Below, piece by piece: positions 4,046-59,309 of a stretch of DNA of 64,000 nucleotides. A program made the position numbers and the translations under genes. The first letter of the stretch is position 1. The number at the start of each line of letters is the position of its first letter. Origin of the DNA: Porticoccaceae bacterium (GTDB lineage: Bacteria > Pseudomonadota > Gammaproteobacteria > Pseudomonadales > Porticoccaceae). Where the stretch lies: positions 242 through 64,241 of the forward strand of contig JAQWMF010000014.1 in assembly GCA_029246925.1 (NCBI GenBank), given 5' to 3'. Under the pieces are notes generated by a model. The model had not been told where the DNA came from, did no database searches, and saw only the letters and a list, made by a program, of their open reading frames with translations.

Positions 4046-4069
4046 GTTCGAGTGCTTTAGTCGGACGCA
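4046..4069. promoter_or_regulatory. Putative transcription-factor operator GTTCGA-N9-TCGGAC
   Basis: 22/24 identical to 59286-59309; lies between the divergent AraC and GH16-like genes. Confidence 0.65.
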
Positions 4070-4212
4070 ATAAATAAGCCCAATCTGTAATTTAGACTTA
4101 AATCAACCTTGCAAGTGCCATAAATTACTGTGTAAGGAAAAAATACATCTAGTAAGTTAAGAGAATGCCATGAGAGCGGCATAACAAAAATAAAGAAGAA
4201 AAGAGGTTTTAA

Positions 4213-6690
4213 ATGTTTGCTAAAAAAGTGCTTGTCGCGCTGAGTCTACCATTTATATTTTCACTTACAGCCTGTGGTGGCGATGCAGATCAAAATGTTG
4301 TGCGTGATATTTTTGCAATTGGCGATATTGTAGAAACTAAAGAAGATGGCGGTGAGGTGATTGGTGATGTGAGCACCAATGATCAAGGCGACAATCTTAG
4401 TTTTTCTTTGGTTGAAAATCAGACCATGGAAAATGGAACTCTTGTGTTCAATACAGATGGCACATTTACCTATACACCTGATTTAGATTTTTTTGGCTCT
4501 GACGCAATACATTATGTAGCGACTAATGATGTTACTGGTGCCACCTCTACGGCGACTCTTACTATAAATGTAGTGAATGATTTTGAGCGTATTGATGAAT
4601 ATGGCTGGGAATTAGTTTGGAGTGACGAATTTAATGCTGCTGATGTATTCGACTCAAGTCTCTGGGTTGGAGATGATGTTACTGTTAGTAGTGGCAGTCT
4701 TAAAATTAATGCAATTGAGGGTCAATCTTCGTCAGTTAAAGGTATACAGCCAATCAGCAAAGGTCGTATTGAAGCCAATGTAAGAACGGCTGCTGGTGTT
4801 GATGTAATGTCGGCCTTTAAATTAGTTCCAGTGAGCGATATTTACGATGGTGATAACGCGCTAAGTTTAATGCAGGCTGAAGATGGCACTATGACGGCTG
4901 GTGCGCACTACGGTTTGGATAGAATAAGTGGCGTTCTTATGAATGCTGATATTCTTGCGACTACTTCTGATGAGTTTCATACCTATGCTATTGAATGGGG
5001 TGAGAAAAAAATACGTTGGTATATAGATGGAACCCATGTCTATACAGTAAATACACTGAACCTATGGGGATATAACCAAAGTGCCGACGATATAGTTGCT
5101 GATACAGACGGACCATTTAATCAGCCTATGCACGTTATTTTTGATGTGACAGCAGCCACTGAAGATTTGCCGACTCAAATTCTTGTTGATTATATAAAGG
5201 TGTGGTCTTGTAACCCTTCAGTGGAAGCTAGCGTTGAAGAATGTGCGTCCAAGGAAAAGTCAAAAATCTCTCGGGGAGCAACAGACAGGATTGAGGCTGT
5301 AGGCGCTGAGCAAACCACTATCTTTTCTGATGGTTATAAAGATCCTGCTACTGAGGCTCTAATATCTGCGTTACACCCTTTGAGCTGGCACTATCTAAAA
5401 AAAGATGTATTCGATTTAACTCTAACCAGTGACAATGAGTCTGAAGTTAAAACCCTTACTCTTGAAGGCGACGAGCATGATCTTGTATTAGATTTCACCA
5501 ATGCTTCTGGGGCAGCTTCAATGGGCATTGAAACAGAGGTAATAGAGAGCGTTGAGTTAAATGGCTACGATATTACTTTGAATTTTGATCTTTTGATCGA
5601 TAGCGCTGCAACAGATGCTGAAAATATCACCATCAAAATGCAATCTGGTGATGCTGTTGATGATGATACTGCTGATTCTGGTGCTGGAGAAGTCTCTTGG
5701 GTTCTGGAAGAGCTTACCTTGGACTCTTGGGTAACTTACAGTATTCCAGTGTCAGACTTTATCGACAATCCTGTAGACCCGTTAGGTCTAGATCCAGAGA
5801 ACCTTACATCATTGATGATCCTTGAAGTGGATGGTGGCGCCCATTTGCAATTAGATAATATTTCGCTGAATTGCATAAACTCAGAAGGTTGTCTTCAGGG
5901 TCCACTGGCCTTGCAAACGGCTGCTGCACCAAAAGCTGATCCAATTCGCATTGAAGCCGAAAACCACATAACCCAAAGTGGAACTGGTCTTGAAGATACA
6001 GCGGATGAGGGTGGCGGTCAGAATGTTGGTTTTGTCAGTGATGGTGACTTTGTAAGTTACACCATCAATGCACCAGCTATTGGGCCCTACACTCTGGACT
6101 ATCGTGTGGCGAGTAAGGGCGGGAGTGATGGGTTTGTTATGTCGCTTGATGGTGAGGTTATTCATTCCCAATCAATTCCTGATACTGGCGATTGGCAGAA
6201 TTGGGTCACAGTCACTTCTTCAGCATTCGAGTTGACTGCAGGGGTATATACCATGCAGATCGACTTTGTTGATGAAAACCAGAATCTAAACTGGCTTGAA
6301 ATACAGCCGCCACTTGGTGAAGTTTTTATCGAAGCTGAAGACTATGACGTCGTGAGTGGAATTGATATGGAAGAAACCACTGATACTGGCGGTGGTGAGA
6401 ATATTGGCTGGATTGATCAGGGTGATTTTGTTGAATACACCGTCAATATTCCATCGACCGGTGAATATCTCATTCAATACCGTGTTGCAGGACTCTGGGA
6501 TACCCTAGGGCTTGAGAACACTATTGGTGGCGTTTTAGTGGATACGCAAGCGATGGATTCAACGGGCGACTGGCAGAACTGGGTAACGCAAAGCGCCGTG
6601 GTGAATTTAACCGCGGGTGAGCAAACCATGCGCTTAGACTTTATCGATGGGCCTATGAATATCAACTGGATTAAGCTGATCAGACAATAG
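4213..6690 (+). CDS. Lipoprotein: Ig/cadherin-like domain + degenerate GH16 domain + CBM-like beta-sandwich + 2x CBM6
   Basis: Lipobox LTAC; DGTFTYTP repeat-type domain; GH16 framework (WELVWSDEF, GRIE, FHTYAIEW, IRWYIDG, PFNQ, VDYIKV) but no ExDxxE motif; two CBM6 modules (RIEAE...GWID.GD..EY...TG.WQ.W.T...N.NW). Confidence 0.8.
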   Translation: MFAKKVLVALSLPFIFSLTACGGDADQNVVRDIFAIGDIVETKEDGGEVIGDVSTNDQGDNLSFSLVENQTMENGTLVFNTDGTFTYTPDLDFFGSDAIHYVATNDVTGATSTATLTINVVNDFERIDEYGWELVWSDEFNAADVFDSSLWVGDDVTVSSGSLKINAIEGQSSSVKGIQPISKGRIEANVRTAAGVDVMSAFKLVPVSDIYDGDNALSLMQAEDGTMTAGAHYGLDRISGVLMNADILATTSDEFHTYAIEWGEKKIRWYIDGTHVYTVNTLNLWGYNQSADDIVADTDGPFNQPMHVIFDVTAATEDLPTQILVDYIKVWSCNPSVEASVEECASKEKSKISRGATDRIEAVGAEQTTIFSDGYKDPATEALISALHPLSWHYLKKDVFDLTLTSDNESEVKTLTLEGDEHDLVLDFTNASGAASMGIETEVIESVELNGYDITLNFDLLIDSAATDAENITIKMQSGDAVDDDTADSGAGEVSWVLEELTLDSWVTYSIPVSDFIDNPVDPLGLDPENLTSLMILEVDGGAHLQLDNISLNCINSEGCLQGPLALQTAAAPKADPIRIEAENHITQSGTGLEDTADEGGGQNVGFVSDGDFVSYTINAPAIGPYTLDYRVASKGGSDGFVMSLDGEVIHSQSIPDTGDWQNWVTVTSSAFELTAGVYTMQIDFVDENQNLNWLEIQPPLGEVFIEAEDYDVVSGIDMEETTDTGGGENIGWIDQGDFVEYTVNIPSTGEYLIQYRVAGLWDTLGLENTIGGVLVDTQAMDSTGDWQNWVTQSAVVNLTAGEQTMRLDFIDGPMNINWIKLIRQ

Positions 6691-6743
6691 GTTTTGGCAA
6701 CAATTAAAAAATAATTAGAAGTAGCTCGAGTAGGGATAAATAT

Positions 6744-9700
6744 ATGAAGTACGAGACTAAATTCAAAAGACAATTATTAGCAAGTAGTATTGCTATGGTT
6801 GTGGCTGCTGGTGCTAATGCTCAGGAAGCAGTGCTTGAGACGGCGGATGATAATATCGAAGAGGTTGTAGTCACAGGTATTCGAGCCAGTTTGCAGCGTT
6901 CGATGGATATTAAGCGCGATGCCAAGGGTATTGTCGATGGAATTTCAGCAGAAGATATAGGTAAATTTCCGGATACTAACCTAGCTGAGTCTCTGCAGCG
7001 AATCACGGGGGTTGCTATTGAGCGCGATCGCGGTGAGGGCTCAAAGATTACGGTTCGTGGTTTTGGTCCAGACTTTAATATTGTCAGTTTTAATGGCCGT
7101 CAGATGCCTACCAACGGTGGTAGATCTTTTGACTTTGGTAATATTGCATCTGAGGGTATATCTGCGGTTGAGGTGTATAAATCGGGTCGAGCCAATGTAG
7201 CTTCTGGTGGTATTGGCGCGGTAGTCAATGTGATAACCAGCAAGCCGCTTGAAAAACCCGGTCTTCGTGCAGTTTTAAGTACCAAAGGGGTCTATGATCC
7301 AGGCACTAGACGCGGGAATTCAGTGAATCCTGAAATTGTTGGGCTGTTTAGTCAAACCTTTGCCGAGGACACCATTGGTGTTTCTCTATCTGCCAGTAAA
7401 CAGGTTCGAGATGGTGGCTCTCAGTCAGTCACAACTCAAAGCTTTATGGGCCGCAATTTTGTTACTCTGGATGATATGGATAATAACGTTGATGATGCAG
7501 AATGGGGCTCAATACCTGTTGGCGATCCAACAGCGATTAACTTCCCTACAGAGGTTTCTGAGGGTATTTATGCCATTCCAACCAATATTCAATATAACCT
7601 CGATGATTTTCGCCGTGAACGTATTAATGGACAGCTGACTTTACAGTGGCGACCGGTAGAAAATATTACTGGAACTATCGACTATACCTATGCTGAAAAT
7701 CAGATGAATACTCAGCACCAAGATTTATCGGCGTGGTTTGATCCGGGTTGTAGCACGCGCGAGAGTGAATGGGTTCAAGAGGGAAATATATGGTCGCCTA
7801 CGGTTTATCGTCAAGTGGGTTGTGCGCAGGATAATCTTCAGGGTGTCGGACTTTTTGCAACAGTTGATGAAAATAAATCGGCTGGCTTTAATTTGGAATG
7901 GCTAGTCAATGACAACCTGACTTTAAATATGGACTATCACGATTCAACCGGTGAATCTCGCCCCAATAGTAAACATGGATCAGGCGGTTCAATGGCAGTT
8001 GCTGCACTTAATCGAATTACTACATCGGGCTACTTTAGTGAAGACGGTATGCCTGTTTTAGAGGTTCAGCTGGGTGAGCGAAATTCTTATAACCAAATTT
8101 CTAGAATAGACCCAGTAAATGCTGAAGATATGCAGGTGTCTGGTAGTTCATTTGGAAGCTTTAACAATGTTATGGATGTTAAGCAGCTTCAGTTTGACGG
8201 TGAGTATGTATTTGATGAGGGGCATAGCATAGATTTCGGTATTGGTCGCATTGAGGTTACCAACAGAGGGCAGTCTAAGAGTATTGCTCGAAATACATGG
8301 AGTGGTGTGGGTGATCCGGGTGATATTGCTGATTTCCTGACGGTTGATTCTATTGCCGATGTCTACGATACACTTGAAGGCAGCGGTGATCCGCGACAGG
8401 TAACAGAGTTTTTCACTTGGGATTTTCAGGCGCTTATTGATCGCAGTGAGGAGCTTCTGCAATCAGGTAGCCATGGTGATGTTGATGGTGATGGCGGACC
8501 CTGTTTAACCGGTTTCTGCCCCTCTTATAACTTTGATTTGGACGAAGTCACAACTGAAACGTCTGATTCAATCTATTTGCAAACCCATTGGGCTGGCGAT
8601 CTATTAGATCGTCCAGTTAATCTATTCTATGGCATACGCTACGAAAAAACAGAAGTTCATTCTGAGGCGCTAGTGCCACTTTATGACCGTGTTGAGTGGA
8701 GTATTTTGGATAACCGCTTTAATCTTTATCAGCAGCAAGATGAAGAGGGCAATACCATTGTAGGCTTCTCAGAAATTGATGGTTCCTACAGCATGTTTTT
8801 GCCAAGTCTCGATTTTGATATGGAAATTATGGATGATGTCATCTTGCGTGCTTCCTACAGCTTGACTGTAACGCGCCCAGTTTACAACGATCTCAAAGGT
8901 GCGTTGATTATCGATTATCTAGGCACTGATGGTGGTGGTGGTCGAAGAGGTAACCCGCAGCTTCTACCTATGGAAGCAACCAACTTAGATCTATCATTAG
9001 AATGGTATTACGATGAAGGCAGTTACGTTTCTGCAGGCCTATGGTCTAAGGATGTAGATAACTTTATTATAAGTGCTACCTTTGAAGATCAGCCGTTATT
9101 CAAAAACCTTTACACGCCGATTGATGGCGATTTATACAATCAGGCAGTGGATGAGTTAACGGGTGGTGATCCGCGATTTGACTATGATGCGGGGGACCTA
9201 AATGAATACTATGCGGAAAATTATATAGGTCAACCGGGAATAGAGATATCTGGTCTGGGTGACGATATTGAGGTGACTCAAACTGGTCTTGAAGGGGATC
9301 CAGTGGCTATTTTTGATGTTACTATTCCAATTAATCAGCGTGAAACCAACGTTAAAGGTCTAGAGTTAATGGCCCAGCATACCTTTGGTGAATCAGGCTT
9401 TGGTTTTCAAGCAAACTACACGGTTGTCGATGGTGACCTTAAGTACGATATCAATCTTAATGAGGAACAGTGGGTTATTCCTGGTATGAGCGATACGGCT
9501 AACCTAGTTGCCTTTTATGATAAGAATGGATTCCAAATTCGGTTGGCCTATAACTGGCGTGATGAGTTCTTGGCATCCCCCGGAAGAGATCCACGCTTTG
9601 TTGAAGAATATTCCCAGTTTGACCTTAATGCGAGCTATGAATTTAACGATAATTTGTCAGTATTTATTGAGGGAATTAACTTAACCGAAGAGCATCAGCG

Positions 9701-9785
9701 TATTCATGGTCGATCGTCTTATCAGGTTAGAGAATACTCTGTAGGTCATGCTCGCTATAACCTAGGTGCCCGATATAGCTTCTAA
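6744..9785 (+). CDS. TonB-dependent receptor (SusC-like glycan importer by context)
   Basis: Signal peptide, TonB box IEEVVVTG, plug ISAEDIGKFPDTNLAESLQRITGV, C-terminal YNLGARYSF. Confidence 0.95.
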   Translation: MKYETKFKRQLLASSIAMVVAAGANAQEAVLETADDNIEEVVVTGIRASLQRSMDIKRDAKGIVDGISAEDIGKFPDTNLAESLQRITGVAIERDRGEGSKITVRGFGPDFNIVSFNGRQMPTNGGRSFDFGNIASEGISAVEVYKSGRANVASGGIGAVVNVITSKPLEKPGLRAVLSTKGVYDPGTRRGNSVNPEIVGLFSQTFAEDTIGVSLSASKQVRDGGSQSVTTQSFMGRNFVTLDDMDNNVDDAEWGSIPVGDPTAINFPTEVSEGIYAIPTNIQYNLDDFRRERINGQLTLQWRPVENITGTIDYTYAENQMNTQHQDLSAWFDPGCSTRESEWVQEGNIWSPTVYRQVGCAQDNLQGVGLFATVDENKSAGFNLEWLVNDNLTLNMDYHDSTGESRPNSKHGSGGSMAVAALNRITTSGYFSEDGMPVLEVQLGERNSYNQISRIDPVNAEDMQVSGSSFGSFNNVMDVKQLQFDGEYVFDEGHSIDFGIGRIEVTNRGQSKSIARNTWSGVGDPGDIADFLTVDSIADVYDTLEGSGDPRQVTEFFTWDFQALIDRSEELLQSGSHGDVDGDGGPCLTGFCPSYNFDLDEVTTETSDSIYLQTHWAGDLLDRPVNLFYGIRYEKTEVHSEALVPLYDRVEWSILDNRFNLYQQQDEEGNTIVGFSEIDGSYSMFLPSLDFDMEIMDDVILRASYSLTVTRPVYNDLKGALIIDYLGTDGGGGRRGNPQLLPMEATNLDLSLEWYYDEGSYVSAGLWSKDVDNFIISATFEDQPLFKNLYTPIDGDLYNQAVDELTGGDPRFDYDAGDLNEYYAENYIGQPGIEISGLGDDIEVTQTGLEGDPVAIFDVTIPINQRETNVKGLELMAQHTFGESGFGFQANYTVVDGDLKYDINLNEEQWVIPGMSDTANLVAFYDKNGFQIRLAYNWRDEFLASPGRDPRFVEEYSQFDLNASYEFNDNLSVFIEGINLTEEHQRIHGRSSYQVREYSVGHARYNLGARYSF

Positions 9786-9816
9786 AATTTCATGAAGTTT
9801 TGATCGATTGATAAAG

Positions 9817-9850
9817 AAGCTCTTAACTTTAATTAGTTAGGAGCTTTTTT
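9817..9850 (+). terminator. Rho-independent terminator after TBDR1
   Basis: aagctcttaac / gttaggagctt stem followed by a T-tract. Confidence 0.75.
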
Positions 9851-9927
9851 ATTAAATTCCAATTCTCAATATCCAAGGGTATATTAGAGAGCTGACATAA
9901 CATTGCCGGAGTAATTTAGGAGTAGGC

Positions 9928-10623
9928 ATGGCCAATCATGTGCTTTTAGATAATATTAATCATAAAGATCTAAAAATAATGACCAAAAGATCCGCAAGTC
10001 TAGGGGATAATATTCCCTCCCTTGTGACATTTCCTTTTGAGTACAGGGATATCCAAACAAATTTCCCTATCTGTTTTTGCAAGGATTCAGAAACCGGTAA
10101 ATTTTATACTGCCGCTTTGTTTGGTTTTGAAGAAAACGAAAATCTTTTTTTAGATGGGGATAACTGGGATGCAGCCTATACCCCCTTAATGCTAGAGCGT
10201 CAGCCTTTCTTTATTGGAAATCAGCAGAAGCAAAATGGTGAAGAGGAGCGGCTTATATATATTGATATGGATAGCCCCAGAGTTGGCTCAACCGATGGCG
10301 AGGCATTATTTCTTGAACAGGGTGGAGTCACTAATTATTTGCAAAGAATGAGTGCTATTCTAGAAGCCATTCATCAGGGGCAGCAGCAAGCCAAAGAATT
10401 CGTTGAATTAATGCTAAAGCATAATCTTAAGGTTGAATTAAACGATGGTACAAATAATCAGTTGCAGGGTTTTTACACCATTAATGAAGACGCACTTGAT
10501 GCACTTTCTTCAGAAGCAGTCTCTGAGTTATGGGCAAGTGGTTATATGCAGGCGGCCTATATGGTGATTGCCTCAATGTCTAATTTTAGATCCCTAATTG
10601 AGCGAAAAAACAAACGTTTATGA
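9928..10623 (+). CDS. SapC-family protein (TBDR-associated, function unknown; not the SapC ABC permease)
   Basis: FPFEYRDIQTNFPICF, ALFGFEENENLFL, W.AAY.P.MLERQPF.IG, IDMDSPR, L.GFYTINE motifs; paralog of 35944-36660. Confidence 0.85.
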   Translation: MANHVLLDNINHKDLKIMTKRSASLGDNIPSLVTFPFEYRDIQTNFPICFCKDSETGKFYTAALFGFEENENLFLDGDNWDAAYTPLMLERQPFFIGNQQKQNGEEERLIYIDMDSPRVGSTDGEALFLEQGGVTNYLQRMSAILEAIHQGQQQAKEFVELMLKHNLKVELNDGTNNQLQGFYTINEDALDALSSEAVSELWASGYMQAAYMVIASMSNFRSLIERKNKRL

Positions 10624-11633
10624 TTTCCATTAATAAGCCAATTAAAGACATTAAATGCGCTGATCAAGGGCGAGTTCCCGATGAGGTTTATGCTTCCGTG
10701 GAGCCAGTAGTTATTCGCGGGCTAGTTGCCGATTGGCCATTAGTGAAAATGGGGCAAAAATCCTTCCGTGATGCAGGAGATTATCTTAAAGGTTTTTATC
10801 AAAATCTCCCTGTTGCGGCGTCAATTGGTGACCCCGATATAGATGGCAGAATTTTTTATAATGAAGATTTTTCTGGATTTAATTTTCGCTCAGTTAAAGC
10901 AGATCTTCACCAGTTATTAGACAAGATATATCAATCTGCTGATGATCAGAATCCTGAAACTGTCTATATGGCGTCTACCATGGTTGATCGCTGGTTTCCC
11001 AAATTTCGGGATAAGCACAGACTGTCGATTGACCCAAATAATCCCCTAGTCAGTATTTGGCTGGGTAATCGCACGCGCATTGCTGCGCATTATGATCTGC
11101 CAGATAATATTGCCTGTTGCGCAGTTGGTCGCCGTCGATTTACTCTTTTCCCGCCAGATCAGTTAGCTAATTTATACCCAGGTCCAATTGATTGGGCGCC
11201 GGGCGGTCAGTCAATCAGCCTAGTGGATTTTGAAAATCCCGATTTTGAGAAATTTCCAAACTTTCAAAAAGCGCTTGAATCTGCTCAGACTGCTACTTTA
11301 GAACCGGGTGATGGATTATTTATTCCCAGTATGTGGTGGCATCATGTTGAGGGATTGGATCCTCTAAATATACTGATTAATTACTGGTGGCGGCAATCGC
11401 CAAGCTATATGGATAGTCCGGCAAATGTATTAATGTATGGTCTTATGAGTATTCGTGACTTGCCTGCAGAGCAAAAACAGGCTTGGCGAGATATTTTTGA
11501 TTATTATATTTTTGATGCTGATTCGGATGCTCATAGCCATATCCCCGAGCAAGCAAAAGGTTCATTGGGATCAATTGATGAAAACTTAAATAGAAAAATA
11601 AGATCACTGTTAATGAAAAAAATTAATCGATAG
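10620..11633 (+). CDS. Cupin_8 / JmjC-like Fe(II)/2-oxoglutarate oxygenase (Pass1-related)
   Basis: HYD...H metal triad (AHYDLPDN; WWHHV), GRRRFTLFPP, LEPGDGLFIPSMWW; ATGA overlap with the SapC stop. Confidence 0.85.
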   Translation: MISINKPIKDIKCADQGRVPDEVYASVEPVVIRGLVADWPLVKMGQKSFRDAGDYLKGFYQNLPVAASIGDPDIDGRIFYNEDFSGFNFRSVKADLHQLLDKIYQSADDQNPETVYMASTMVDRWFPKFRDKHRLSIDPNNPLVSIWLGNRTRIAAHYDLPDNIACCAVGRRRFTLFPPDQLANLYPGPIDWAPGGQSISLVDFENPDFEKFPNFQKALESAQTATLEPGDGLFIPSMWWHHVEGLDPLNILINYWWRQSPSYMDSPANVLMYGLMSIRDLPAEQKQAWRDIFDYYIFDADSDAHSHIPEQAKGSLGSIDENLNRKIRSLLMKKINR

Positions 11634-11766
11634 TAATTTTTCCGTATTTTCCATTTTTACCAGCCCATTATGAAATTGGGCGGGTAACTTCTGCCTGCAA
11701 ACATTCTTTTTAGTTACCCATCTACTGATTACAGGTAAAAAAAAAGATATGAATCTAAAAAAATTG

Positions 11767-11788
11767 GTTCGAATACGTTACTAGGACG
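11767..11788. promoter_or_regulatory. Degenerate third copy of the operator (GTTCGA-N9-TAGGACG)
   Basis: Same half-sites and 9-nt spacer as the 4046 site; about 100 bp upstream of the GH5 gene. Confidence 0.45.
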
Positions 11789-11886
11789 ATTCCTAGTATG
11801 AAAATTTATACATTAGAATTAAATTTCCATAGATATTTATTTAAAAATGCGATGCTATCGTGACCAATAATTAGAAAGGTAACCCA

Positions 11887-14800
11887 ATGCAAATCAACAG
11901 TCCAAATTACGCTCTTAGCTCGGTAAGTCCCTTGAAGGCTTGCGCGCTATGCTTTTTACTATTATTTATTGTCAGCTGTGGTGTTGAAACTGGCAATGAA
12001 TTTCTGGATGCTCCAGAAAATATAGTAGATACCAGTAATCAGGACTCAAATGCCTATAAGCCACTAGGAGAAATTCCTGATGTGTCACTGGCAGATATCA
12101 CTGTTCGTGGGCGACCTTATATAGATAAGTCTCTAGGTTATAACGTCATCCGTTCTGATATGGGTACCTTGCTTCGAGGTGTCAGCCTATCGACAGATGG
12201 TGGCGATCCCTATAACGCGGCAAATGCAATGAATCCGCCTATGCCAACCCTACAGCAGTTGCAGGATATGGTGAATAATTATGGTTTCAATACCCTGCAT
12301 GTATATCTGGAGGGCGATGCAGCACAAAACCCCAATCCAGCAGGTATTAATGAAGCTCTAGCGGATCACTTAGTTGAAATCACCCGTGAAGCCAAAATGT
12401 ACCTCATTATCACCATCGGTAATAACGGCGAAAATGGGGCGATTCACAGTATGGAAAAAGTATTGGCGTTTTGGGATCTCTATGGCGCCAAATATAAAGA
12501 TGAAACCCATGTTATCTATGAAGCACACAATGAGCCGGTAGTTGGTTCAAATGCTTATTGGACGACAGAAGACTGGGAAAAGCAGGCTCAGATGTATCAA
12601 AAAATTCGGGAAGTGGCGCCTGATACCATGGTTTTATTGGGATCCTTTATGTCATTTTTTGGTGGTTCTCAAGCCATTAAAGGCGCTGATGGTTTGGCTG
12701 AGCAGTTCCCTGATATTTGGAAAAATGCCGGATTCGCATTCCACGCCTATTGGAATCTCCCTCAGGTTGAAAGCACTATTGAAGCCTTTGAAGCAAGTGA
12801 TGACTATCCAGCATTGCTATGTACAGAATTTTGGCCTGGTGATACCAAAAATGGCTATAACGAAGTATTCGAAAGTCATCAAATTGGCTGGACTCAATTT
12901 GAATGGCTAGGTGCCAATGATCTTGAATTAGATCGCATTAAAAACTATATGGATACCTATGGTACGGCATGGCGTCCAGACAACCCTACGACTACCTGGC
13001 CAGCAAGCGGTACACCCAATATACCTATAGACCAAAAAATTGGTTTGTATAGTCGTGCCGATAAAGCGTTTCTTGGACTTGATGATAATGACAGAGTTGT
13101 AGCTGGTGATCGTAGCTATGATGGCGTGGGTTCGGATGAATTTATTGTGGTAGATGCCGGTGATGACGGGCATATCGCATTGCTAGCCGATAATGGTAGA
13201 TATTTATCTGTCAGCGACTATGGGCAACCCCTAGTGGCCACCGCTAGAAAAATCGGGGTTAATCAAAAATTCAAATGGTTGGAGTTGCCCACTGGTGATA
13301 TAGCGCTTCGCCCATGGTCAGGATCAGGCCACTTAATTGGAACCATTCCCTCTGCTGATGGCGATGGGTTCGGTCTAACGGGCTCAATGGGTGCCGGTAT
13401 TAAACGCGGAGGTGCAAACACATACCGCATGGTGACCAGTTACACTGATTCTGTTGATCCATTACCAGAGCTACCAGAGACTCCCCCTGGTCCATTTTTC
13501 GGAAGTCCAATGCCAGTGCCAACTAGCGGCAATGGCGACCACCCTCTAGACAGTTTGGCACCTAACGGTCGCCTTTGGGCTTCTGATTATGATAATGGCG
13601 GTGAAGGAATATCCTATCATGACACCGGTGCAGTCAATCTCGGTGAGGCCTATCGTGCGTCTGAAGCGGTTGATGTTCAGTCCAGCTCAGAAGGCCATAC
13701 CTCTGTGGGATTCTTTGAACCAGACGAATGGCTTGAATACAGTATAGATGTGGCTCAGGCTGGAAATTATACCCTGACTCTGCGAACGGCATCATGGGGT
13801 GGTGGCTTTATTAGTCTAGAGTCTGACTGTGAAAAACTAACGGGAAATCTCTCAACACCAGATACAACGAGTTGGGATATTTGGCAAGATATGACGGTTG
13901 ATATCACTTTGAAAGCCGGTGTGCAAAAGCTCAGAGTAGTCAGTGGCGGCAATATGAACTTTATGAATATGGATATTCAGTTGGGCGGTGAAGGCGGTTC
14001 TGACTATGGTGCTGGTTGTGAGTGGGTTGCACCAGAGCCAGATGATTTAAAAGTCGAAGCAGAGGATTGGACTACCGTAGTAGCTGCACCAGCAGGTACG
14101 GTCAGTATAGATACGGCTTCTGATAGCGATTTAAGTCAGCATGTGGGTAATTTTGATGCCGGTGACTTTATTGAATATGCCGTAGAGTTACCAAGTACAG
14201 CCTGTTATCGCGCGGAATATCGTGTCGCTAGTGATTCAGGCAGTGATGGTTTTGAGCTTATATTTGACGGTGAAACTGCAGATAGCTTCAAAATAGCGCC
14301 AACCGGTGGTTGGTCAAGCTGGGTTACATTCACTCGACACTATGAGCTTAACGAAGGCAGTCAAACCCTAAGACTCGAAGCTTTGGGCGATTCCTTCAAT
14401 ATTAACTGGCTAACATTTAATGAAACTGAAGCGGTTGATTGTGAGCAAAGCGCCGCAATTATCATTGAAGCTGAAACCTATTCAAATTCGGTTCAGCTTC
14501 CCGATGGAGAAGTGAACACACAGCCTAGTGAAGATGAAGGTGGCGGTCTAAATGTGGGTTGGATTGATGCTGGTGACTGGATGGAGTATGAACTACAGGT
14601 TAGTGAAGCGAGTAACTACACAGTGAGTTACCGCATGGCCAGCCAGTCAGGCAGTAGCTCAGGTATTAATCTTCTTACAGATGGCAACCTAGTTGATTCG
14701 ATTCAGGTGCCAAACACCGGTGGTTGGCAGATTTGGCAAACTGTCGAAGGTGGAAATATTTCTCTAGAAGCGGGTGATTATGTGCTTCGATTTGAAGCGC

Positions 14801-16818
14801 CAGGAGGAGGTCTTAACCTTAATTGGATTAAGTTGATGCCAACGAATGAAACAGCTACTGGCAATTTAGGTACAGGAGTCGATGACAGCCTAAATGTTGG
14901 TGAAGTGATTAACTTTAATGATCTGTATGTGGATTATGACTTAATCGATCTAGGTGATAGTTTATCTAACCTAGAAGCTGACCCATCGGATAATACCAAT
15001 ACCGTTGTCTCTATCCTTAAAGGTGCTGTTGCACAATCTGGGGTTAAGATTGCCAGCGCTCAGGTTACATACCCATTGAGTGAGACTCTAACTAGATTAT
15101 CGATGCGCGCGTATAGCTCAGCTATTGGCACCTCAGTGCGTATGAAACTAGAAGATTCAACCAACAGTGCTAATTCTGTTGAGGCTGAAGCCTTAACCAC
15201 GGTAGCTAATGAATGGGAAATATTAATCTTTGACTTTAGTAACCCAGTCGATGGCACAGCTGAATTAAACACAGGCTATAATTTTGATACAGTTTCAGTA
15301 TTCTTTAATTACTTAAGTGCGGGTAATGGAGAAACTTACTATTTTGACGACATAACCATGCTAGACGAAGTGGTTGAGCCTATAACTTTGACGCAAGAAA
15401 TACTGGTTGGTGAATGGAAATTAGCCCCAGAAGCTGGTTCCGCTGGTGTGGGTTGGGAATCTGGCAATCTAGGCTGGTGGCAGGTTGATGCAGCTACCGT
15501 TATCGATAGAGATTGCTTGTTTGATGATCTATTTGTATTTTCTGAAGATGGGACGTTCACTAACCAAATGGGTGGTTCAACTTGGATTGAACCATGGCAA
15601 GGTGTAGATCCTGAGGCCTGTGGCACACCAGTTGCGCCTCACGATGGTAGTGGCAGTGCATCCTATGTATTAGATCCTGAAGCGGGAACCATTACATTGA
15701 CCGGTGTTGGCGCTCATCTCGGTCTGGCTAAAGTAATGAGTGGTGGCGATGAACTGGCCAGTCCAGATGATGCCCCTGAATCCATTGTTTATAAGGTAAT
15801 GGCCAGTACAGATAACAGTATAACTGTAGAAGTTGCCTATTCAGCAGGGTTCTGGACCTTTAAGTTGGTTGCATCTGACTATGTTGCTGAGGTGCAGGAA
15901 GACCCTGTTGTTGATAGCGATAACCCTCGCATTGAAGCTGAAGATTGGTCGAATGTAATTTCAGCACCAGAGGGTGAAGTAGCCACTGAAAACTCTCAGG
16001 ACACTGGTGGTGGTGAAAATGTAGGTTGGATTGACCTTGGTGACTGGATGGAATACAGCCTTAATATCAGTCAGTCAGGTAATTATCAGATGAACTACCG
16101 AGTTGCGAGTCAGAGCGGCAGTTCGCCAGGCTTTAAGATCCTATTAGATGGTACTTGGATTGATCAAATTGCAGTCACAAACACTGGCGCCTGGCAGAAT
16201 TGGGAGACAATTTCTGGCAGAGTAATCTATCTTGATCAAGGACTACACACATTGCGTCTGGAAGCTCGTTCTGGTGGTGTTAATTTAAATTGGATCGAAC
16301 TTGTAGCGACTAATGCGCAAGCTGATCCATTGCCAGAGGCAGCCCCCCCAATAACGGCCAGTGATTTAGTGGGTAATTGGAAGTTAGCCCCTGAAGCGGG
16401 TGCATTGAGCAATCCGTACTGGGCTAATGATGTAGCATCAGTAACTAGTCGAAGCTGCCTATTTGATGATCTATTTATATTTTCTAGTAATGGCGCGTTT
16501 ATCAACCAAATGGACGGTGAGACTTGGGTAGAACCATGGCAAGGGGTAGCTTCAGAGCGTTGTGGAACACCGGTTGCACCGCATAATGGCGCTGGACGTA
16601 CTGGTTATATTTTTGATGATTCAGCTATGACCATAACATTAAATGGTGCGGGTGCTCATTTAGGGATTCCCAAGGCAATTAATGGTTCGGAAATGGATTC
16701 TCCAAGCCAAACGCCAGATTCAATTGTTTATGAGGTTATTGATAGCACCGCGACAACCATGACCTTGAATATTAATGTCTCCTGGGGTGATTGGACATTT
16801 AAATTAATCAAAGATTAA
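11887..16818 (+). CDS. Multimodular GH5 glycoside hydrolase lipoprotein (GH5 + fascin-like + 4x CBM6 + CBM-like + 2x repeated domain)
   Basis: Lipobox IVSC; GH5 motifs LLRG, YEAHNEP, FHAY, CTEF, QFEW; beta-trefoil-like segment; four CBM6-type modules; internal repeat at about 15403-15870 and 16366-16815. Confidence 0.8.
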   Translation: MQINSPNYALSSVSPLKACALCFLLLFIVSCGVETGNEFLDAPENIVDTSNQDSNAYKPLGEIPDVSLADITVRGRPYIDKSLGYNVIRSDMGTLLRGVSLSTDGGDPYNAANAMNPPMPTLQQLQDMVNNYGFNTLHVYLEGDAAQNPNPAGINEALADHLVEITREAKMYLIITIGNNGENGAIHSMEKVLAFWDLYGAKYKDETHVIYEAHNEPVVGSNAYWTTEDWEKQAQMYQKIREVAPDTMVLLGSFMSFFGGSQAIKGADGLAEQFPDIWKNAGFAFHAYWNLPQVESTIEAFEASDDYPALLCTEFWPGDTKNGYNEVFESHQIGWTQFEWLGANDLELDRIKNYMDTYGTAWRPDNPTTTWPASGTPNIPIDQKIGLYSRADKAFLGLDDNDRVVAGDRSYDGVGSDEFIVVDAGDDGHIALLADNGRYLSVSDYGQPLVATARKIGVNQKFKWLELPTGDIALRPWSGSGHLIGTIPSADGDGFGLTGSMGAGIKRGGANTYRMVTSYTDSVDPLPELPETPPGPFFGSPMPVPTSGNGDHPLDSLAPNGRLWASDYDNGGEGISYHDTGAVNLGEAYRASEAVDVQSSSEGHTSVGFFEPDEWLEYSIDVAQAGNYTLTLRTASWGGGFISLESDCEKLTGNLSTPDTTSWDIWQDMTVDITLKAGVQKLRVVSGGNMNFMNMDIQLGGEGGSDYGAGCEWVAPEPDDLKVEAEDWTTVVAAPAGTVSIDTASDSDLSQHVGNFDAGDFIEYAVELPSTACYRAEYRVASDSGSDGFELIFDGETADSFKIAPTGGWSSWVTFTRHYELNEGSQTLRLEALGDSFNINWLTFNETEAVDCEQSAAIIIEAETYSNSVQLPDGEVNTQPSEDEGGGLNVGWIDAGDWMEYELQVSEASNYTVSYRMASQSGSSSGINLLTDGNLVDSIQVPNTGGWQIWQTVEGGNISLEAGDYVLRFEAPGGGLNLNWIKLMPTNETATGNLGTGVDDSLNVGEVINFNDLYVDYDLIDLGDSLSNLEADPSDNTNTVVSILKGAVAQSGVKIASAQVTYPLSETLTRLSMRAYSSAIGTSVRMKLEDSTNSANSVEAEALTTVANEWEILIFDFSNPVDGTAELNTGYNFDTVSVFFNYLSAGNGETYYFDDITMLDEVVEPITLTQEILVGEWKLAPEAGSAGVGWESGNLGWWQVDAATVIDRDCLFDDLFVFSEDGTFTNQMGGSTWIEPWQGVDPEACGTPVAPHDGSGSASYVLDPEAGTITLTGVGAHLGLAKVMSGGDELASPDDAPESIVYKVMASTDNSITVEVAYSAGFWTFKLVASDYVAEVQEDPVVDSDNPRIEAEDWSNVISAPEGEVATENSQDTGGGENVGWIDLGDWMEYSLNISQSGNYQMNYRVASQSGSSPGFKILLDGTWIDQIAVTNTGAWQNWETISGRVIYLDQGLHTLRLEARSGGVNLNWIELVATNAQADPLPEAAPPITASDLVGNWKLAPEAGALSNPYWANDVASVTSRSCLFDDLFIFSSNGAFINQMDGETWVEPWQGVASERCGTPVAPHNGAGRTGYIFDDSAMTITLNGAGAHLGIPKAINGSEMDSPSQTPDSIVYEVIDSTATTMTLNINVSWGDWTFKLIKD

Positions 16819-19508: not shown

Positions 19509-19946
19509 TGATTAATAGAACCTCGGGATTTGTCTTAGTTAAACGACTAGTTTACATCAAGTGTGGTGCAATTATTAGCGCCGAATTTTTTTAAATAGGC
19601 TATTTTGTTGTTTAAATTGCCTGGGCGCAGAATCGTACTGGACAAGATAAAAAGTTACAACAAAGAAACATAATTTTACGATCTGTAAAAAGTTATTTAG
19701 CCAAAACAGGTGAAAAAAATGAATAAATTTGCCCAAATTTGCCCAATTTTCGTCAAAAAGGTCTATTTAATCGGTCGATAAACTGGCGAAATTAAAATAG
19801 TGCCCTTAGAATAGCCGCCTTTTGAGTTTTACCAATTAGCGTATATAGCATTAAAAGTCTAAACGAGACAAATGGATTTGCTAGCGGGTATCCAGTAATT
19901 AGGATCCAAGTACTTACTTTCAACGAGATAATTAGTTAGGTTTCAA

Positions 19947-23495: not shown

Positions 23496-24917
23496 TTATC
23501 GCGCTTCTAATTGTGTGCGAATCTCATGAGATTTCTCCTCATCAAGATCGTAATTTCGCATCGCAAAGATGGCTATTAGAGTACCAGTGCAGGGGATAAT
23601 AATATAGCTAAGTCGAAGCAATGTCATTGTTTCTTCACTTTGGAGAGCCACTGATTGGTCAAAGCCAATAACGCTTAGAATTAAGCCACTTGCCGCGCCA
23701 GCAAATGCACCGCCAAATTTAACCATCCACCAGTAGATAGCGCCAAAGGTGCCTTCGCGTCGTTGATTAGTTTCTAGTTCATCTAAGTCACAGACATCGG
23801 CAGTCATAGACATCATGATAGTAAATAGGCCGCCAATACCGAATGCGAAAAGTGGTAATGGGATAAACATCATCCATGGATTTTCTGGTGAAAATCCCCA
23901 CCAGAAAAGCACATAACCCAGCAGTGAAACCGCTTGCGAGTATAGGAAAGTGGTTTTTTTACCGTATTTTTGGGCAAAGTGATTTACGATAGGAATTACC
24001 ATAAAGGTAGTAAATAAAGCACCAACAGAGCCAAATAAAGTAGGCCAGACACCCGCGGCTGTTGGATCGCCTTCGTTCATGTAGTACACAACGATAAACC
24101 AAGAAAATGCAGCTACTACTTGGAACGCATTAAAGATAAAGAAAGTAGCAATACAGATTTTCTGGAAGGGTTTATTGCGTAGAGTCACTAGAATACCACG
24201 ACCAAAATCGAGCATAGTTTCTTTAAGAGACTTATCATCTCTTTCATGTTGGACAGCAGATGCTGGTGTTGTATGGGTGCAAAAAATAGCGGGTACCAAT
24301 GCCATTATCATACAGCCACCGCCAACCCATAGTGAAAGGGTTCTAGCGCCTTCAGTGGCTGATTCATACCAATCGGGATCATAGAGAATAATCCAGAACC
24401 AGGGTGCAATTACCCAGGCCCACTGACCAATCCACTGAGCCACTGCCATAATGCGGGTGCGCTCATGGAAGTCAGTACTCATCTCATAGCCCATAGCGAC
24501 ATAAGGAACGCCGAAAATAGTCATGCCAATCCAAAATACACAGGCCCAGAATAGGAAGTAATAAAAGTTATACATCTCGGTGTTAGTGGCATATAGCTGC
24601 CACATCATCATAAACGATAAGCCTGAGATAATAGCGCCTACAAATACGTAGGGACGGCGTTTTCCCCATCTTGAATTGGTGTGATCGGAGATCTAACCCA
24701 TTAATGGATCAGTTACTGCATCTATTAGTTTGGGGATAAAGAAAATTAGCGCCCAAAGAACAGGGCTCATGCCTAATCCTTGAACAAGAATCACCATAAA
24801 TATACCCAATGCAGCGGGGAACATTTGATTGGCTAACATGCCAATGCCAAAAGCGATTTTTTGATTAAAGGGTACCTGATTGGTGGTTGATACTTCTTGC
24901 AAGTTATCTTGGGTCAT
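23496..24917 (-). pseudogene. GPH-family (MFS) glycoside:cation symporter interrupted by one in-frame TAG
   Basis: ORFs 24693-24917 and 23496-24611 share one frame. Continuous translation gives DAVTDPLMG*ISDHTNSRWGKRRPY, the conserved GPH motif, with TAG at 24693-24695. Confidence 0.85.
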
Positions 24918-25042
24918 AATCCGTATCTTCTAATGTTATTATTAGTTTGAAGTGACTCTATTCATCACCTAGATGTGTTTTGAGTCTACCATCTTTTATT
25001 AATTAATCGTTCGAAAATCTGTCAGCTTTATGTGTTAACTGC

Positions 25043-26272: not shown

Positions 26273-26417
26273 TGGTGTCACCTTGGGTTAAAAATTAAGT
26301 CGGACATTCTATTTCCGAGGGCTGTGCAAAACAAGCGCTATAACTACTATGCAAAATTGTTAAATGAGTAATATAATCGCCTAAATGTCTGTACATAATA
26401 ATTATAGGTTAAATTAA

Positions 26418-47694: not shown

Positions 47695-47709
47695 ATACCG
47701 TATTCAAGC

Positions 47710-49156: not shown

Positions 49157-49198
49157 AAGAAAAACGTAACCTATTTGTATACTGAATAAGTAAAACCA

Positions 49199-53580: not shown

Positions 53581-53634
53581 AAAATCTGAATAAACGCCTG
53601 CCATTAGTTACAATGTCTGGTTTAAACAATAATT

Positions 53635-54246: not shown

Positions 54247-54254
54247 GACCTAGT

Positions 54255-55028: not shown

Positions 55029-55030
55029 TT

Positions 55031-55055
55031 AAAAAAAGACCGCGAAGCCGCGGTC
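55031..55055 (-). terminator. Rho-independent terminator of rpoE-chrR
   Basis: gaccgcg-aagc-cgcggtc preceded by A7 on the + strand (U-tract on the minus strand). Confidence 0.75.
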
Positions 55056-55085
55056 AAAGTCTTAAGATGCTAAGAGGGAATAGTT

Positions 55086-55754
55086 TTATGAAGGGTTGAC
55101 CCTCAACCATGGGTTTAGGATCAAGCCTAAAATACTTTTCAGCTTAATCGGGGCCTCTCGGGCGGAGAGACAAATACACTCACCGTTTTTAGCGCCCATA
55201 GGCTGATGAACATCACCTGGCTCTCTGATAATAAAGTCGCCTTGCGTGTAAACAGATTTTTCATCCGAGAAACTGCCTTTTAATACCACTGTATATTCCA
55301 AGCCGCGGTGATCATGTTTAGGCGTTACACCACCAGCGCAAATTTTATGTAAGGCAACTTCAAACTTGCTCTGACCCGTAAATAATTTAGCGACTTCCAT
55401 AGAGCTTGAGAGGCGTTTCCATACAGGCGTATTTTGAGCGTCGTTAAGTAATTTATTAACATGTGTGGGAAAACCACTGATGTCAGTTTTTTCTCGCGAA
55501 TTCTCGACGGCTGGTTGTGGTTGATCTATTTGAGCCATAACCTTATCGAATAGACCGTTATCAATAATAGCCTCAGGCTGAGCTTCATACATAAGCTGGG
55601 CGCCAATTTCGTTGAGTCTAGCCACTTCATTTCTACAGCATTTGCAAAAATGTAAGTGAGCCGAGACGCAGATAGAGGTGGCGGTATCGAGAGTTCCGGC
55701 TGAAAATTCAACAAGCATTTCACTTGAGGGGTGGTGATTTAAAAATTTAGTCAT
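55086..55754 (-). CDS. chrR: Anti-sigma factor ChrR
   Basis: HHPS.EMLVEFSAG, HLHFCKCC zinc-binding anti-sigma motif, C-terminal cupin (H.H.G.E.TVVL.GSF.D, HQP). Confidence 0.9.
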   Translation of the reverse strand: MTKFLNHHPSSEMLVEFSAGTLDTATSICVSAHLHFCKCCRNEVARLNEIGAQLMYEAQPEAIIDNGLFDKVMAQIDQPQPAVENSREKTDISGFPTHVNKLLNDAQNTPVWKRLSSSMEVAKLFTGQSKFEVALHKICAGGVTPKHDHRGLEYTVVLKGSFSDEKSVYTQGDFIIREPGDVHQPMGAKNGECICLSAREAPIKLKSILGLILNPWLRVNPS

Positions 55755-56406
55755 TAACTAGCTCTTTTTTAAATTCTGGAGCGACTAAAATCTGCAATTT
55801 GTGCAGGCCTAATCTAACTCTCGATTTTACTGTTCCTAGAGGTAAGTCCAGTTCTTGTGATGCTTCAGTATGAGACTTACCTTCCAGATACACTTTCCTT
55901 AGAATTTCATCTTGCTCCTGAGGGAGTTGTTCAAGGCTCAATTTCACATGTTCCTCGGTTCTTTTTTGTCTGAGTAAAGATACTGGTGTTGCTTCGTCAG
56001 GCTCATGCCAAAAATCTTCATTTTCCAACGGTAAATGCTGGGTATTGCATTTACGTCGTAACATATCTATTCGGCAGTTTCGAGCAACGGTATAGATCCA
56101 AGTAGTCGCAGAAGCTTTTTGCGGATTATAACCACCCGCTTTTTGCCAAACCTTAATCATAACCTCTTGAACTAAGTCTTCAGCAAGCCCAGGGAACCAA
56201 CCATCTTGACGGCTAGCTTGGGCAAAACTTTTTAGCAAAGGGGCATAGTGCTCAAATAATTGAGCAAATGCACTACGATCTTGAGAGGTGCCAACCTCTA
56301 CAAGGAGGACACTCCATATATCGTCGCGCTTCTCAGTGCTTTTAAAAATAGCAACTTTAGGCGCACTTTGATTTATTTTGTCCATAGTGGCTCTTGTTTT
56401 ATTCAT
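55747..56406 (-). CDS. rpoE: ECF sigma factor RpoE of the RpoE-ChrR (ECF11) type
   Basis: AEDLVQEVMIKVW, WIYTVARN..ID, HTEASQELDLPLGTVKSRVRLG; overlaps chrR. Confidence 0.9.
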   Translation of the reverse strand: MNKTRATMDKINQSAPKVAIFKSTEKRDDIWSVLLVEVGTSQDRSAFAQLFEHYAPLLKSFAQASRQDGWFPGLAEDLVQEVMIKVWQKAGGYNPQKASATTWIYTVARNCRIDMLRRKCNTQHLPLENEDFWHEPDEATPVSLLRQKRTEEHVKLSLEQLPQEQDEILRKVYLEGKSHTEASQELDLPLGTVKSRVRLGLHKLQILVAPEFKKELVND

Positions 56407-56440
56407 TACTATTAGTCTTCTTATTAAGTCTAACAGTAGT

Positions 56441-56466
56441 TACGTTTAAATCGAAAACTAAGATCA
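56441..56466 (-). promoter_or_regulatory. Probable autoregulatory ECF11 promoter (TGATCT-N16-CGTA)
   Basis: Minus strand reads TGATCT tagttttcgatttaaa CGTA, 35 nt upstream of the rpoE start; matches the recalled RpoE-ChrR consensus TGATCC/CGTA. Confidence 0.65.
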
Positions 56467-56627
56467 CCGGTTCAGGGATTATTTTTATGGCAGGCATAAT
56501 ATCTAGGTTATCTATAACCGATATATTAATTAAGGCTAACGGTATCAGCTAGATTTAAGTAGGATTATGCTATGGTTACAAAGAAATTGTCCTGTAATTT
56601 TATGTCGAATAAAAGAAGGTTTAGTTT

Positions 56628-57911: not shown

Positions 57912-57919
57912 TACTTTAT

Positions 57920-59257
57920 ATGGAAGCCTCAGTACAAGAAACGGCCCTTACTGATTTATTTCAACAGCATATTGCTGAAAAGGTCTCAAGATTCCAGCAC
58001 ATTCTCGAGACTTTAGATTGGGATGAAATTATCATTGGTTCAGGTAGTGAAAAAGTTCAATTTCAGGACGATATGGCCTATTCATTCAAAATAAATCCCT
58101 ACTTTAGAGAATGGATGCCCCTAGATAAACGCGCCAATTGTTTTCTGCAGATACAGCGCAACACAGATAAGCCAACGTTATATTTATGCTGTAAGGAAGA
58201 TATTTGGCATTCGGCGCCACAGGCATTGCCAGAAGGATTTTCCGAACATCTCGAAATTATTGAATACGCCAGTATCGAGGAATTAAAAAAACAGTTAAAA
58301 ATTTCCGAAGAAAGGCTGGTTTTAATCAATGAAACCAATGATTTAGAAATACCTAATGCACAATGGAATTCTCAGCAAGTTCTCCATGCCATTGATTTTC
58401 AGCGACGCAGTAAAACGTCTTATGAACATGCCTGTGTACGTCAAGCAACACAGCTTGCAGTGCCAGCGCACAGGGCAGCTGAGCAAGCCTTTATGTCAGG
58501 TGCAACAGAATTAGAAATCGCCAGTGCCTACCTTTCGGCCTGTAAGCGAAGTGAAAACGAAATGCCCTACGCCATTATTGCAGGTATCAATGAAAACGCA
58601 GCAGTACTCCACCATCATCAGTTAAATAGACAATCAGTTCAGCCGCGAAGTTTCTTAATTGATGCTGGGGTCCAATTTAATAACTACGCATCAGATATTA
58701 CCCGCACCTACGCTTTCGATAAAGACTCTGATTTTTCAGCAATGATTGATCATTTAGATAAGGTTCAGCAGACGTTAGTCAACGAGGGCGGTATTGGCAA
58801 AAGTCCAATGGATTTGCATGTATTAGCACAGCAACAGATTGCTCAGATCCTGATAGATTTTAAATTACTCAAGGTTTCTGTAGAGCAGGCGTTAGATAAA
58901 AAAATTATCAATACATTCTTTCCCCACGGTCTAGGGCACCATTTAGGCAGTAATGTGCATGATAAGGGGAGTCGGCTAGCTAGCCCGAAAGGTGATCTGG
59001 TTCCGGCATCTGAAAAATACCCTAAATTGCGAGCCAGTGCCCCGATGGTAGCTAATCAAATTTACACAGTAGAGCCGGGTATATATTTTATACCTTCACT
59101 TTTAGATAAATTAAATGCGGGCAAGCAAGCAGATAGCATTAACTGGAAAGAGATAAAAAAATGGATGCCATACGGCGGTATTCGTATTGAGGATAATATT
59201 ATTTTGCATGCAAATTCTGAGTTAGAAAATATTACCCGACAAGCATTTCATAAATAG
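57920..59257 (+). CDS. pepQ: Xaa-Pro dipeptidase (prolidase)
   Basis: FKINPYF..W.P, KTSYE..C.R.A, LIDAG, ASDITRT, PHGLGH, TVEPG.YF, GGIRIEDN. Confidence 0.92.
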   Translation: MEASVQETALTDLFQQHIAEKVSRFQHILETLDWDEIIIGSGSEKVQFQDDMAYSFKINPYFREWMPLDKRANCFLQIQRNTDKPTLYLCCKEDIWHSAPQALPEGFSEHLEIIEYASIEELKKQLKISEERLVLINETNDLEIPNAQWNSQQVLHAIDFQRRSKTSYEHACVRQATQLAVPAHRAAEQAFMSGATELEIASAYLSACKRSENEMPYAIIAGINENAAVLHHHQLNRQSVQPRSFLIDAGVQFNNYASDITRTYAFDKDSDFSAMIDHLDKVQQTLVNEGGIGKSPMDLHVLAQQQIAQILIDFKLLKVSVEQALDKKIINTFFPHGLGHHLGSNVHDKGSRLASPKGDLVPASEKYPKLRASAPMVANQIYTVEPGIYFIPSLLDKLNAGKQADSINWKEIKKWMPYGGIRIEDNIILHANSELENITRQAFHK

Positions 59258-59284
59258 TCTTTGGTAAAAAATATAATTTTTATT

Positions 59285-59309
59285 CGTTCGAGTGCTTCAG
59301 TCGAACGCA
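59285..59309. promoter_or_regulatory. Putative operator CGTTCGA-N9-TCGAACG
   Basis: Perfect 7-bp inverted repeat; 22/24 identical to 4046-4069; upstream of the sugar MFS transporter. Confidence 0.65.

Follow-up and report, generated by a model that had tools for sequence, protein, structure and literature searches.

The closest described counterparts of the system reported here are the membrane-bound AraC regulators of Saccharophagus degradans 2-40, in which 16 of the 31 AraC regulators are membrane-bound and several have 6 to 7 transmembrane (TM) segments and lie beside glucanase genes (Weiner et al. 2008, PMC2386152). The authors of that study proposed that these regulators sense extracellular polysaccharide; the study gives gene counts and neighborhoods only, with no operator, regulon, or promoter architecture. 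We analyzed a 64,000-nucleotide stretch of DNA (the window, contig C14) from an uncultured marine bacterium of the Porticoccaceae genus HTCC2207, SAR92 clade, which carries a polysaccharide utilization locus (PUL), a gene for a 7-TM AraC-family regulator (AraC1; 2734-3891, minus strand), and a palindromic motif that recurs before a sugar transporter 55 kb away from the main cluster. We propose that this motif is the operator of a β-1,3-glucan (laminarin) regulon, probably bound by AraC1. AraC1 resembles the S. degradans proteins in its approximately seven TM segments followed by a C-terminal AraC helix-turn-helix (HTH), in its order (Cellvibrionales/Pseudomonadales), and in its glucanase neighbors, a likeness of architecture and neighborhood. 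Membrane-bound AraC regulators beside carbohydrate-active enzyme genes have been known since 2008 (PMC2386152); what appears to be new is the operator motif and its regulon, and our literature searches found no description of the motif.

The system also shares features with better-studied regulators. Classical AraC/XylS operators have half-sites of approximately 17 to 20 bp, mostly arranged as direct repeats. The class II activators of this family (AraC at I1-I2, RhaS, MelR, XylS, and MarA/SoxS) have the same double HTH and an adjacent regulator gene, which here is divergent and apparently autoregulated; their proximal site overlaps the −35 region of promoters in which the −35 element is weak or missing, an arrangement that is predicted here as well. 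However, the classical proteins are soluble and bind their ligand through a cupin or another cytoplasmic domain, whereas the putative sensor of AraC1 is a 7-TM bundle, and the proposed operator departs from the classical form in being a compact inverted repeat with a spacer that changes by half-turns. With CRP/FNR-type class II sites it has in common a palindrome of ~21 to 22 bp centered 42 to 44 bp upstream of the inferred start and the serving of two divergent promoters by one site, but the half-site sequence and spacing differ, and the proposed binder is not of the CRP family. The hybrid two-component systems (HTCS) of Bacteroidota PULs likewise join a membrane-spanning sensor to an AraC-type output that activates a TonB-dependent glycan locus, but they carry large periplasmic sensor, kinase, and receiver domains, none of which is found in AraC1 (385 aa).

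Site 1 (GTTCGAGTGCTTTAGTCGGACGCA, 4046-4069, no strand assigned) reads GTTCGA-N9-TCGGAC, followed by ACGCA, and lies in the intergenic region between the divergent AraC1 and GH16 genes. Site 2 (GTTCGAGTGCTTCAGTCGAACGCA, 59286-59309, plus strand) reads GTTCGA-N9-TCGAAC and lies between pepQ and gluP, 29 nt past the pepQ stop codon and 219 nt ahead of the gluP start codon. As stated in the initial annotation of the window, the two 24-mers differ at only 2 positions, and shuffled sequences were expected to give 0 such pairs. The third copy that it had reported before the GH5 gene is also there, as a weaker match (site 3, GTTCGAATACGTTACTAGGACG, GTTCGA-N9-TAGGACG, 11767-11788, plus strand). A further site in the GH30 promoter (1116-1147, plus strand) consists of the conserved TTAGTCGAAC (1138-1147) and a degenerate partner, GTTCTA, 20 nt upstream. 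The core of the motif is a pair of hexamers in inverted orientation, GTYCGA and TCGRAC, which in many cases are lengthened to GTTCGAGT/ACTCGAAC; this gives an inverted repeat with arms of 6 to 10 bp and an overall length of 21 to 22 bp, with only partial conservation of the flanks.

The motif is rare across the 1.55-Mb assembly, which is ~91% complete. The 24-mer occurs twice even when up to 5 mismatches are allowed, and GTYCGA-N9-TCGRAC matches sites 1 and 2 only. With a spacer of 9 or 10 nt there are four palindromes, all intergenic and all upstream of β-1,3-glucan genes, namely, GH16, gluP-GH3, GH81, and a di-heme oxidoreductase (DHOR)-domain protein followed by GH16-CBM6. The two that lie outside the window, at C3:10297 (GTTCGAGT-N6-ACTCGAAC, N10 between the hexamers, between the AraC2 and GH81 genes) and at C31:7540 (an N10 palindrome preceding the secreted DHOR-domain protein), are kept in related genomes amid diverged flanks. 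Relaxing the spacer to 8 to 16 nt gave five palindromes, four of them intergenic; the other, an N15 palindrome at C48:2701, was located within a coding frame and was taken as chance. Palindromes of equal composition numbered 0.76 per genome on average, and four were reached in 7 of 360 permutations, so that the count is only mildly unusual by itself; the argument for an operator comes from all four being intergenic, conserved, and upstream of β-1,3-glucan genes, not from the count alone. A dispersed repeat of the repetitive extragenic palindromic (REP) type, present in tens to hundreds of copies, was ruled out by the two 24-mers and four palindromes found here and the one to two copies per related genome.

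The predicted targets are functionally coherent, in agreement with the split β-glucan regulon that the initial annotation had inferred. Site 1 precedes a putative operon (4213-11633, plus strand) that encodes a GH16-CBM6 lipoprotein, a TonB-dependent receptor (TBDR), SapC, and a cupin according to Pfam, and site 3 precedes the gene for a 1,643-aa GH5 protein with four CBM6 modules (11887-16818, plus strand; Pfam). The other two targets in the window are the GH30 gene (1245-2696, plus strand; Pfam) and, behind site 2, gluP, for a glucose/galactose major facilitator superfamily (MFS) transporter (NCBIfam TIGR01272, 342 bits), with a GH3 β-glucosidase gene (59528-63548, plus strand; Pfam GH3). 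With the off-window GH81 and GH16-CBM6 genes, the evidence supports a regulon of at least six promoters on three contigs, which thus extends beyond the window.

We used phylogenetic footprinting against G013, which is syntenic with window positions 1 to 33000 at ~80% nucleotide identity, within a close-relative set defined by an AraC1-class protein at 79 to 100% identity (this genome, G000; G013; G018; and six further SAR92 assemblies at 86 to 89% identity). The AraC/GH16 spacer had diverged over most of its length, but the 24-mer of site 1 within it was identical in G000, G013, and G018. In all nine AraC1-bearing SAR92 genomes, exact N9 matches were found once in the AraC/GH16 spacer and once in the pepQ/gluP spacer and nowhere else (with the exception that site 1 of G427 is N10), and a reversed control pattern gave 0 to 3 matches per genome. 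The arms GTTCGAGT/ACTCGAAC of site 2 were kept in nine of nine of these genomes around a variable center. Site 3 was kept in G013 as GTTCGAATACGTTAtTAGGACGATT within a diverged spacer, and the GH30 block AAGTTCTArTAAA..AGTTTCrCTTAGTCGAACAA was kept in eight SAR92 genomes. Sites 1 to 3 and the GH30 site are hence conserved in orthologous promoters, in up to nine SAR92 genomes, while their flanks diverge. The three half-sites listed in the initial annotation fared unequally: all are present and the one before GH30 is the conserved TTAGTCGAAC, but GTTCGA at 25009 (GPH transporter, minus strand) and TCGGAC at 26300 (GH17 lipoprotein) are not conserved in the syntenic G013 and were rejected, being probably chance occurrences. 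A separate small palindrome (CTAGGA-CGAT-TCCTAG, 11783-11798) overlaps site 3; it dominates the predicted fold and is not kept in G013.

The site before gluP was found strictly together with AraC1. The 16 other genomes of the genus with a readable gluP promoter had no AraC1 and no site before gluP, and G023 and G024, which have only a version of AraC at 62% identity, had no site there either. In G005, the nearest relative without AraC1, the pepQ-gluP arrangement is kept, and the whole ~130-nt segment with site 2 and its −10-like hexamer is missing. Closer to gluP, an element of the form AGTCGATAAAGTAAC-N6-TTGCGACTAAA (59406-59432) lies just upstream of a −35/−10-like pair in 12 of 12 aligned HTCC2207 genomes, with or without AraC. 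We considered this direct repeat, with its 21-bp spacing, as the true AraC site and rejected it; since it occurs once in the window and is present in AraC-less genomes, it is best assigned to a factor other than AraC1. Because this element is genus-wide and site 2 is found only with AraC1, gluP appears to have a general promoter and, only where the regulator exists, an extra promoter upstream of it. A sequence approximately 181 nt ahead of gluP in G019, which has no AraC (GTATGAGTCATTTAGTCGGACGCA, locus L016), has the 14-mer TTTAGTCGGACGCA in common with site 1, which may be either what remains of a former regulon link or a chance match.

Beyond the close relatives, a search with an alignment of five AraC orthologues returned 80 loci (L077-L156) that span Porticoccaceae, Cellvibrio, Microbulbifer, Gilvimarinus, Teredinibacter, Marinimicrobium, Colwellia, Pseudoalteromonas, Glaciecola, and Psychrosphaera, supporting a group of related regulators with members in several families of Gammaproteobacteria. 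The pattern GTYCGR-N8-16-YCGRAC was found within 450 nt upstream of the AraC gene in 33 of 77 loci, a proportion that is not convertible to a probability because the loci are related by descent, with several families represented; in the remainder of these loci its rate was 0.020 per 450 nt, and a control pattern was found upstream of none of the AraC orthologues. The same inverted hexamers lie in the upstream spacer of AraC orthologues (49 to 62% identity) from further Porticoccaceae, from Microbulbifer and Cellvibrio, and from one Colwelliaceae genome. The 61 to 62% identity class conserves both site 1 and the GH30 site, as GTCCGA(G/C)TAAC(G/T)TACTCGGAC, with the 6-N9-6 layout of site 1, and as GTTCGG-N20-TCGGAC/CCGAAC at the equivalent position of the GH30 promoter. 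The Colwelliaceae site is GTCTGACTAACTTACTCGGAC; Cellvibrio has GTTCGA-N15-TCGAAC plus additional hexamers, and in Cellvibrio fontiphilus GCGTTCGAATAAATTTAGTCGGGCGCAAG stands ahead of a gene for a CBM6 enzyme, behind which lies a GH30 gene 65% identical to that of the window. We failed to find the strict N9 pattern near orthologues at 53 to 54% identity, where the same hexamers were found at other spacings. The hexamer spacers beside AraC orthologues were 9/10 or 14/15 nt, never 8, 11 to 13, or 16 nt, and those at GH30 promoters were 19/20 nt.

The promoters show a fixed layout, with a −10-like hexamer of the form TAnnnT exactly 21 nt after the promoter-proximal hexamer at five promoters, kept in relatives. 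At the GH16 promoter this is TAATTT (4088-4093, plus strand), 21 nt after TCGGAC, where CTGTAATTT is invariant in close relatives and the 61 to 62% class has TAATTT, TAGATT, or TAAATT at equal distance. The AraC1 promoter mirrors this layout across site 1, with TAAAAT (4019-4024, minus strand) 21 nt after the other arm; G013 has TAATAT here, and G018 has TACTAT. For gluP-GH3, the putative upstream promoter that would depend on AraC has TAACTT (59328-59333, plus strand), with TAACTT or TAATTT at equal distance in eight of nine genomes; site 3 is followed by TACATT (11809-11814, plus strand; TATATT in G013) and the GH30 site by TATAAT (1169-1174, plus strand), each 21 nt downstream. The initial annotation had placed a −10-like hexamer 26 nt after the 21-mer; TAGACT at 4093 and TAGAAT at 11814 are indeed found at that distance at sites 1 and 3, but site 2 has no counterpart, and these hexamers are less conserved than those at 21 nt. 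No sigma-70 −35/−10 pair was found at sites 1 and 2 (3880-4220 and 59200-59540). If the hexamers at 21 nt are taken as −10 elements, the 24-mer would span approximately −54 to −31, and its overlap with the −35 region of promoters without a −35 hexamer is consistent with a class II type activator site, as the initial annotation had suggested in calling it an activator site.

The AraC1 gene is flanked by GH30 and GH16, and a Pfam scan found no other regulator gene in the PUL. The protein has seven hydrophobic segments N-terminal to an HTH_18 domain (residues 302 to 383; 70.8 bits against a Pfam cutoff of 33.6). Its AlphaFold model (46 orthologues, pLDDT 83.5) has seven long helices and a C-terminal domain that superposes on the DNA-binding domains of YesN, AraT, AraC, MarA, and SoxS with TMt values of 0.70 to 0.83; as modeled, this domain has the double HTH that defines the AraC/XylS family. 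A fold search with the 7-TM domain gave only generic seven-helix (G-protein-coupled receptor) matches, which were nonsignificant (E > 0.06, root mean square deviation of 6 to 8 Å) and offered no functional lead. A second 7-TM AraC gene, AraC2, with 35% identity to AraC1, is located on contig C3. There (C3:6332-11488, L045), AraC2 is followed by the GTTCGAGT-N6-ACTCGAAC palindrome and then by a gene for a 1,278-aa GH81 protein, and this trio recurs in G428, G429, and G362.

Directly established are the sequence of the motif, its copy number, its conservation, its co-occurrence with the regulator, and the architecture of the protein. The motif is shared by functionally related genes, conserved in their orthologous promoters, and found together with the putative factor, as is characteristic of a regulon. 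We give a probability of about 0.7 to the reading in which the motif serves a laminarin regulon as its operator and is bound by the 7-TM AraC1 acting as an activator. The membrane AraC protein had been the candidate binder of the initial annotation too, and it is favored by the adjacency of site and gene across four families, the paralogue with a site of its own, and the strict co-occurrence of the gluP site with AraC1. Binding by AraC1, activation rather than repression, the transcription starts, and the inducer are inferred, and the mechanism would be as follows. An AraC1 dimer would bind the palindrome through cytoplasmic double HTH domains tethered to the membrane helix bundle, and the site at approximately −54 to −31 would take the place of the −35 contact, in the manner of a class II type activator site. 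At site 1, one bound dimer, flanked symmetrically by two −10 elements, could switch on the GH16-TBDR operon and the AraC1 gene alike. Site 2 would provide a second, regulator-dependent gluP-GH3 promoter upstream of the genus-conserved one, coupling uptake and cleavage of the end products to the PUL 55 kb away. The inducing signal would presumably be periplasmic laminari-oligosaccharides.

Several observations weigh against this proposal. A 21-bp palindrome with arms of 6 to 8 bp is atypical of the AraC/XylS family, and 44 of the 77 orthologue loci, including that of strain HTCC2207 (L156), have no strict palindrome within 450 nt upstream. Spacers of 9/10, 14/15, and 19/20 nt are half-turn steps that are hard to fit to one rigid binding geometry; we invoke a flexible tether, which may account for them, and have no other explanation to offer. 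In addition, the sites of AraC1 and AraC2 have nearly identical arms, which makes the pairing of regulator to site ambiguous, and the incompleteness of the assembly makes the motif copy counts lower bounds.

The first two of these points would also suit a genuine β-glucan regulon operator bound by a different transcription factor encoded elsewhere, with the AraC gene as merely one of its targets, since short-armed palindromes are more typical of dimeric regulators of the CRP/FNR, LacI, and GntR types than of AraC proteins. We consider this unlikely, as the hexamers track the AraC gene across four families, and the paralogue AraC2 as well, and as site 2 occurs only where AraC1 is present; the PUL of the window has no other regulator gene. 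Somewhat more doubtful still is that the same protein uses the same site as a repressor or dual operator, with the dimer occluding the −35 region until an inducer releases it. The site does cover the expected position of RNA polymerase, AraC-family members can repress, and autoregulation at divergent promoters is often negative; however, the promoters have no recognizable −35 hexamer and such promoters normally need an activator, and a fixed distance of 21 nt to the −10 element at five promoters is a requirement of activation that depends on the face of the helix, not of simple occlusion.

Two further explanations would dispense with a regulator of this kind altogether. GAAC within TCGAAC resembles the AAC core of the −35 elements of extracytoplasmic function (ECF) sigma factors, and TCTG or TCGG follows CGRACGC by 15 nt at sites 1 and 2, as if the motif were part of an ECF-type promoter. 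But ECF promoters pair the −35 element with a conserved −10 (CGT/TC type) at a constant spacing of 16 to 17 nt, and neither site 3 nor the GH30 site has the downstream TC element; the sole ECF/anti-sigma pair in the window (55086-56406) is unlinked, and the conserved upstream arm, the palindromy, and the mirror-image layout at site 1 would be left unexplained, which together make such a promoter highly improbable. Even less credible is a structural hairpin, either an RNA terminator or stabilizer of pepQ or a REP-like DNA repeat, instead of a protein-binding site. In its favor, site 2 lies right behind pepQ, folds at −10.6 kcal/mol (z = −2.2), and has arms that are perfectly complementary in relatives. 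However, neither a T-run nor an intrinsic terminator was called at 59200-59540 or 3880-4220, and the sites had no Rfam match; site 1 sits between divergent genes and folds no better than shuffles (z = −0.7 and −0.2), and site 3 folds differently. There are only 2 to 4 copies per genome, and it is the arm sequence itself that is conserved, and not pairing alone.

The gene cluster as a whole is a laminarin utilization locus, which further contains three GH17 genes, a GPH transporter gene, and a gene for a GH149 β-1,3-glucan phosphorylase (NCBIfam, 1,746 bits). Ahead of the GH149 gene, approximately 250 nt within 19509-19946 are nearly invariant between G000 and G013, far above other spacers; this stretch includes GGTCGATAAAC, similar to the gluP-proximal element, has no Rfam match, and may represent either a leader RNA or a region densely packed with regulatory sites. 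In the GPH (MFS_2) gene, the stretch ahead of the listed open reading frame start (24612-24950) shows coding-like conservation in G013, and the Pfam match begins at profile position 80; for these reasons the gene is longer than listed, and it seems to be interrupted. On contig C31 (5895-16385, L172), three secreted proteins have a common dockerin-like DALTDGLLLLRHSFGL repeat. One of them, of 1,099 aa, ends in the DHOR domain, and the next, of 1,738 aa, joins CBM6 and GH16 to a CotH kinase-like domain; a copy of the operator motif lies upstream of this pair.

Laminarin is one of the largest ocean carbon fluxes, and the SAR92 clade, abundant in coastal waters, blooms in the wake of phytoplankton. 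To our knowledge, little has been established about what switches on the TonB-dependent glycan loci of Gammaproteobacteria, since the SusD, hybrid two-component, and ECF systems studied in Bacteroidota are missing from them. As a tentative generalization, possible rather than probable, the 7-TM AraC proteins of marine and soil polysaccharide degraders (Porticoccaceae, Cellvibrionaceae, Colwelliaceae, and Alteromonadales) may form a distinct class of membrane-embedded one-component sensors that bind inverted YCGRAC hexamers, with spacings quantized in half-turn steps (9/10, 14/15, and 19/20) via a flexible tether, and a streamlined SAR92 lineage may have connected a core glucose transporter to its laminarin regulon through the gain of a ~130-nt promoter module bearing the operator. 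A defined operator would turn the locus into a concrete regulon made up of GH16-TBDR, GH5, GH30, GH81, GH16-CBM6, and gluP-GH3, and would give a handle for annotating the regulons of the uncharacterized membrane-bound AraC regulators in Cellvibrio, Microbulbifer, Saccharophagus, and their relatives. gluP would illustrate how, in nature, an acquired regulon can recruit a core transporter.

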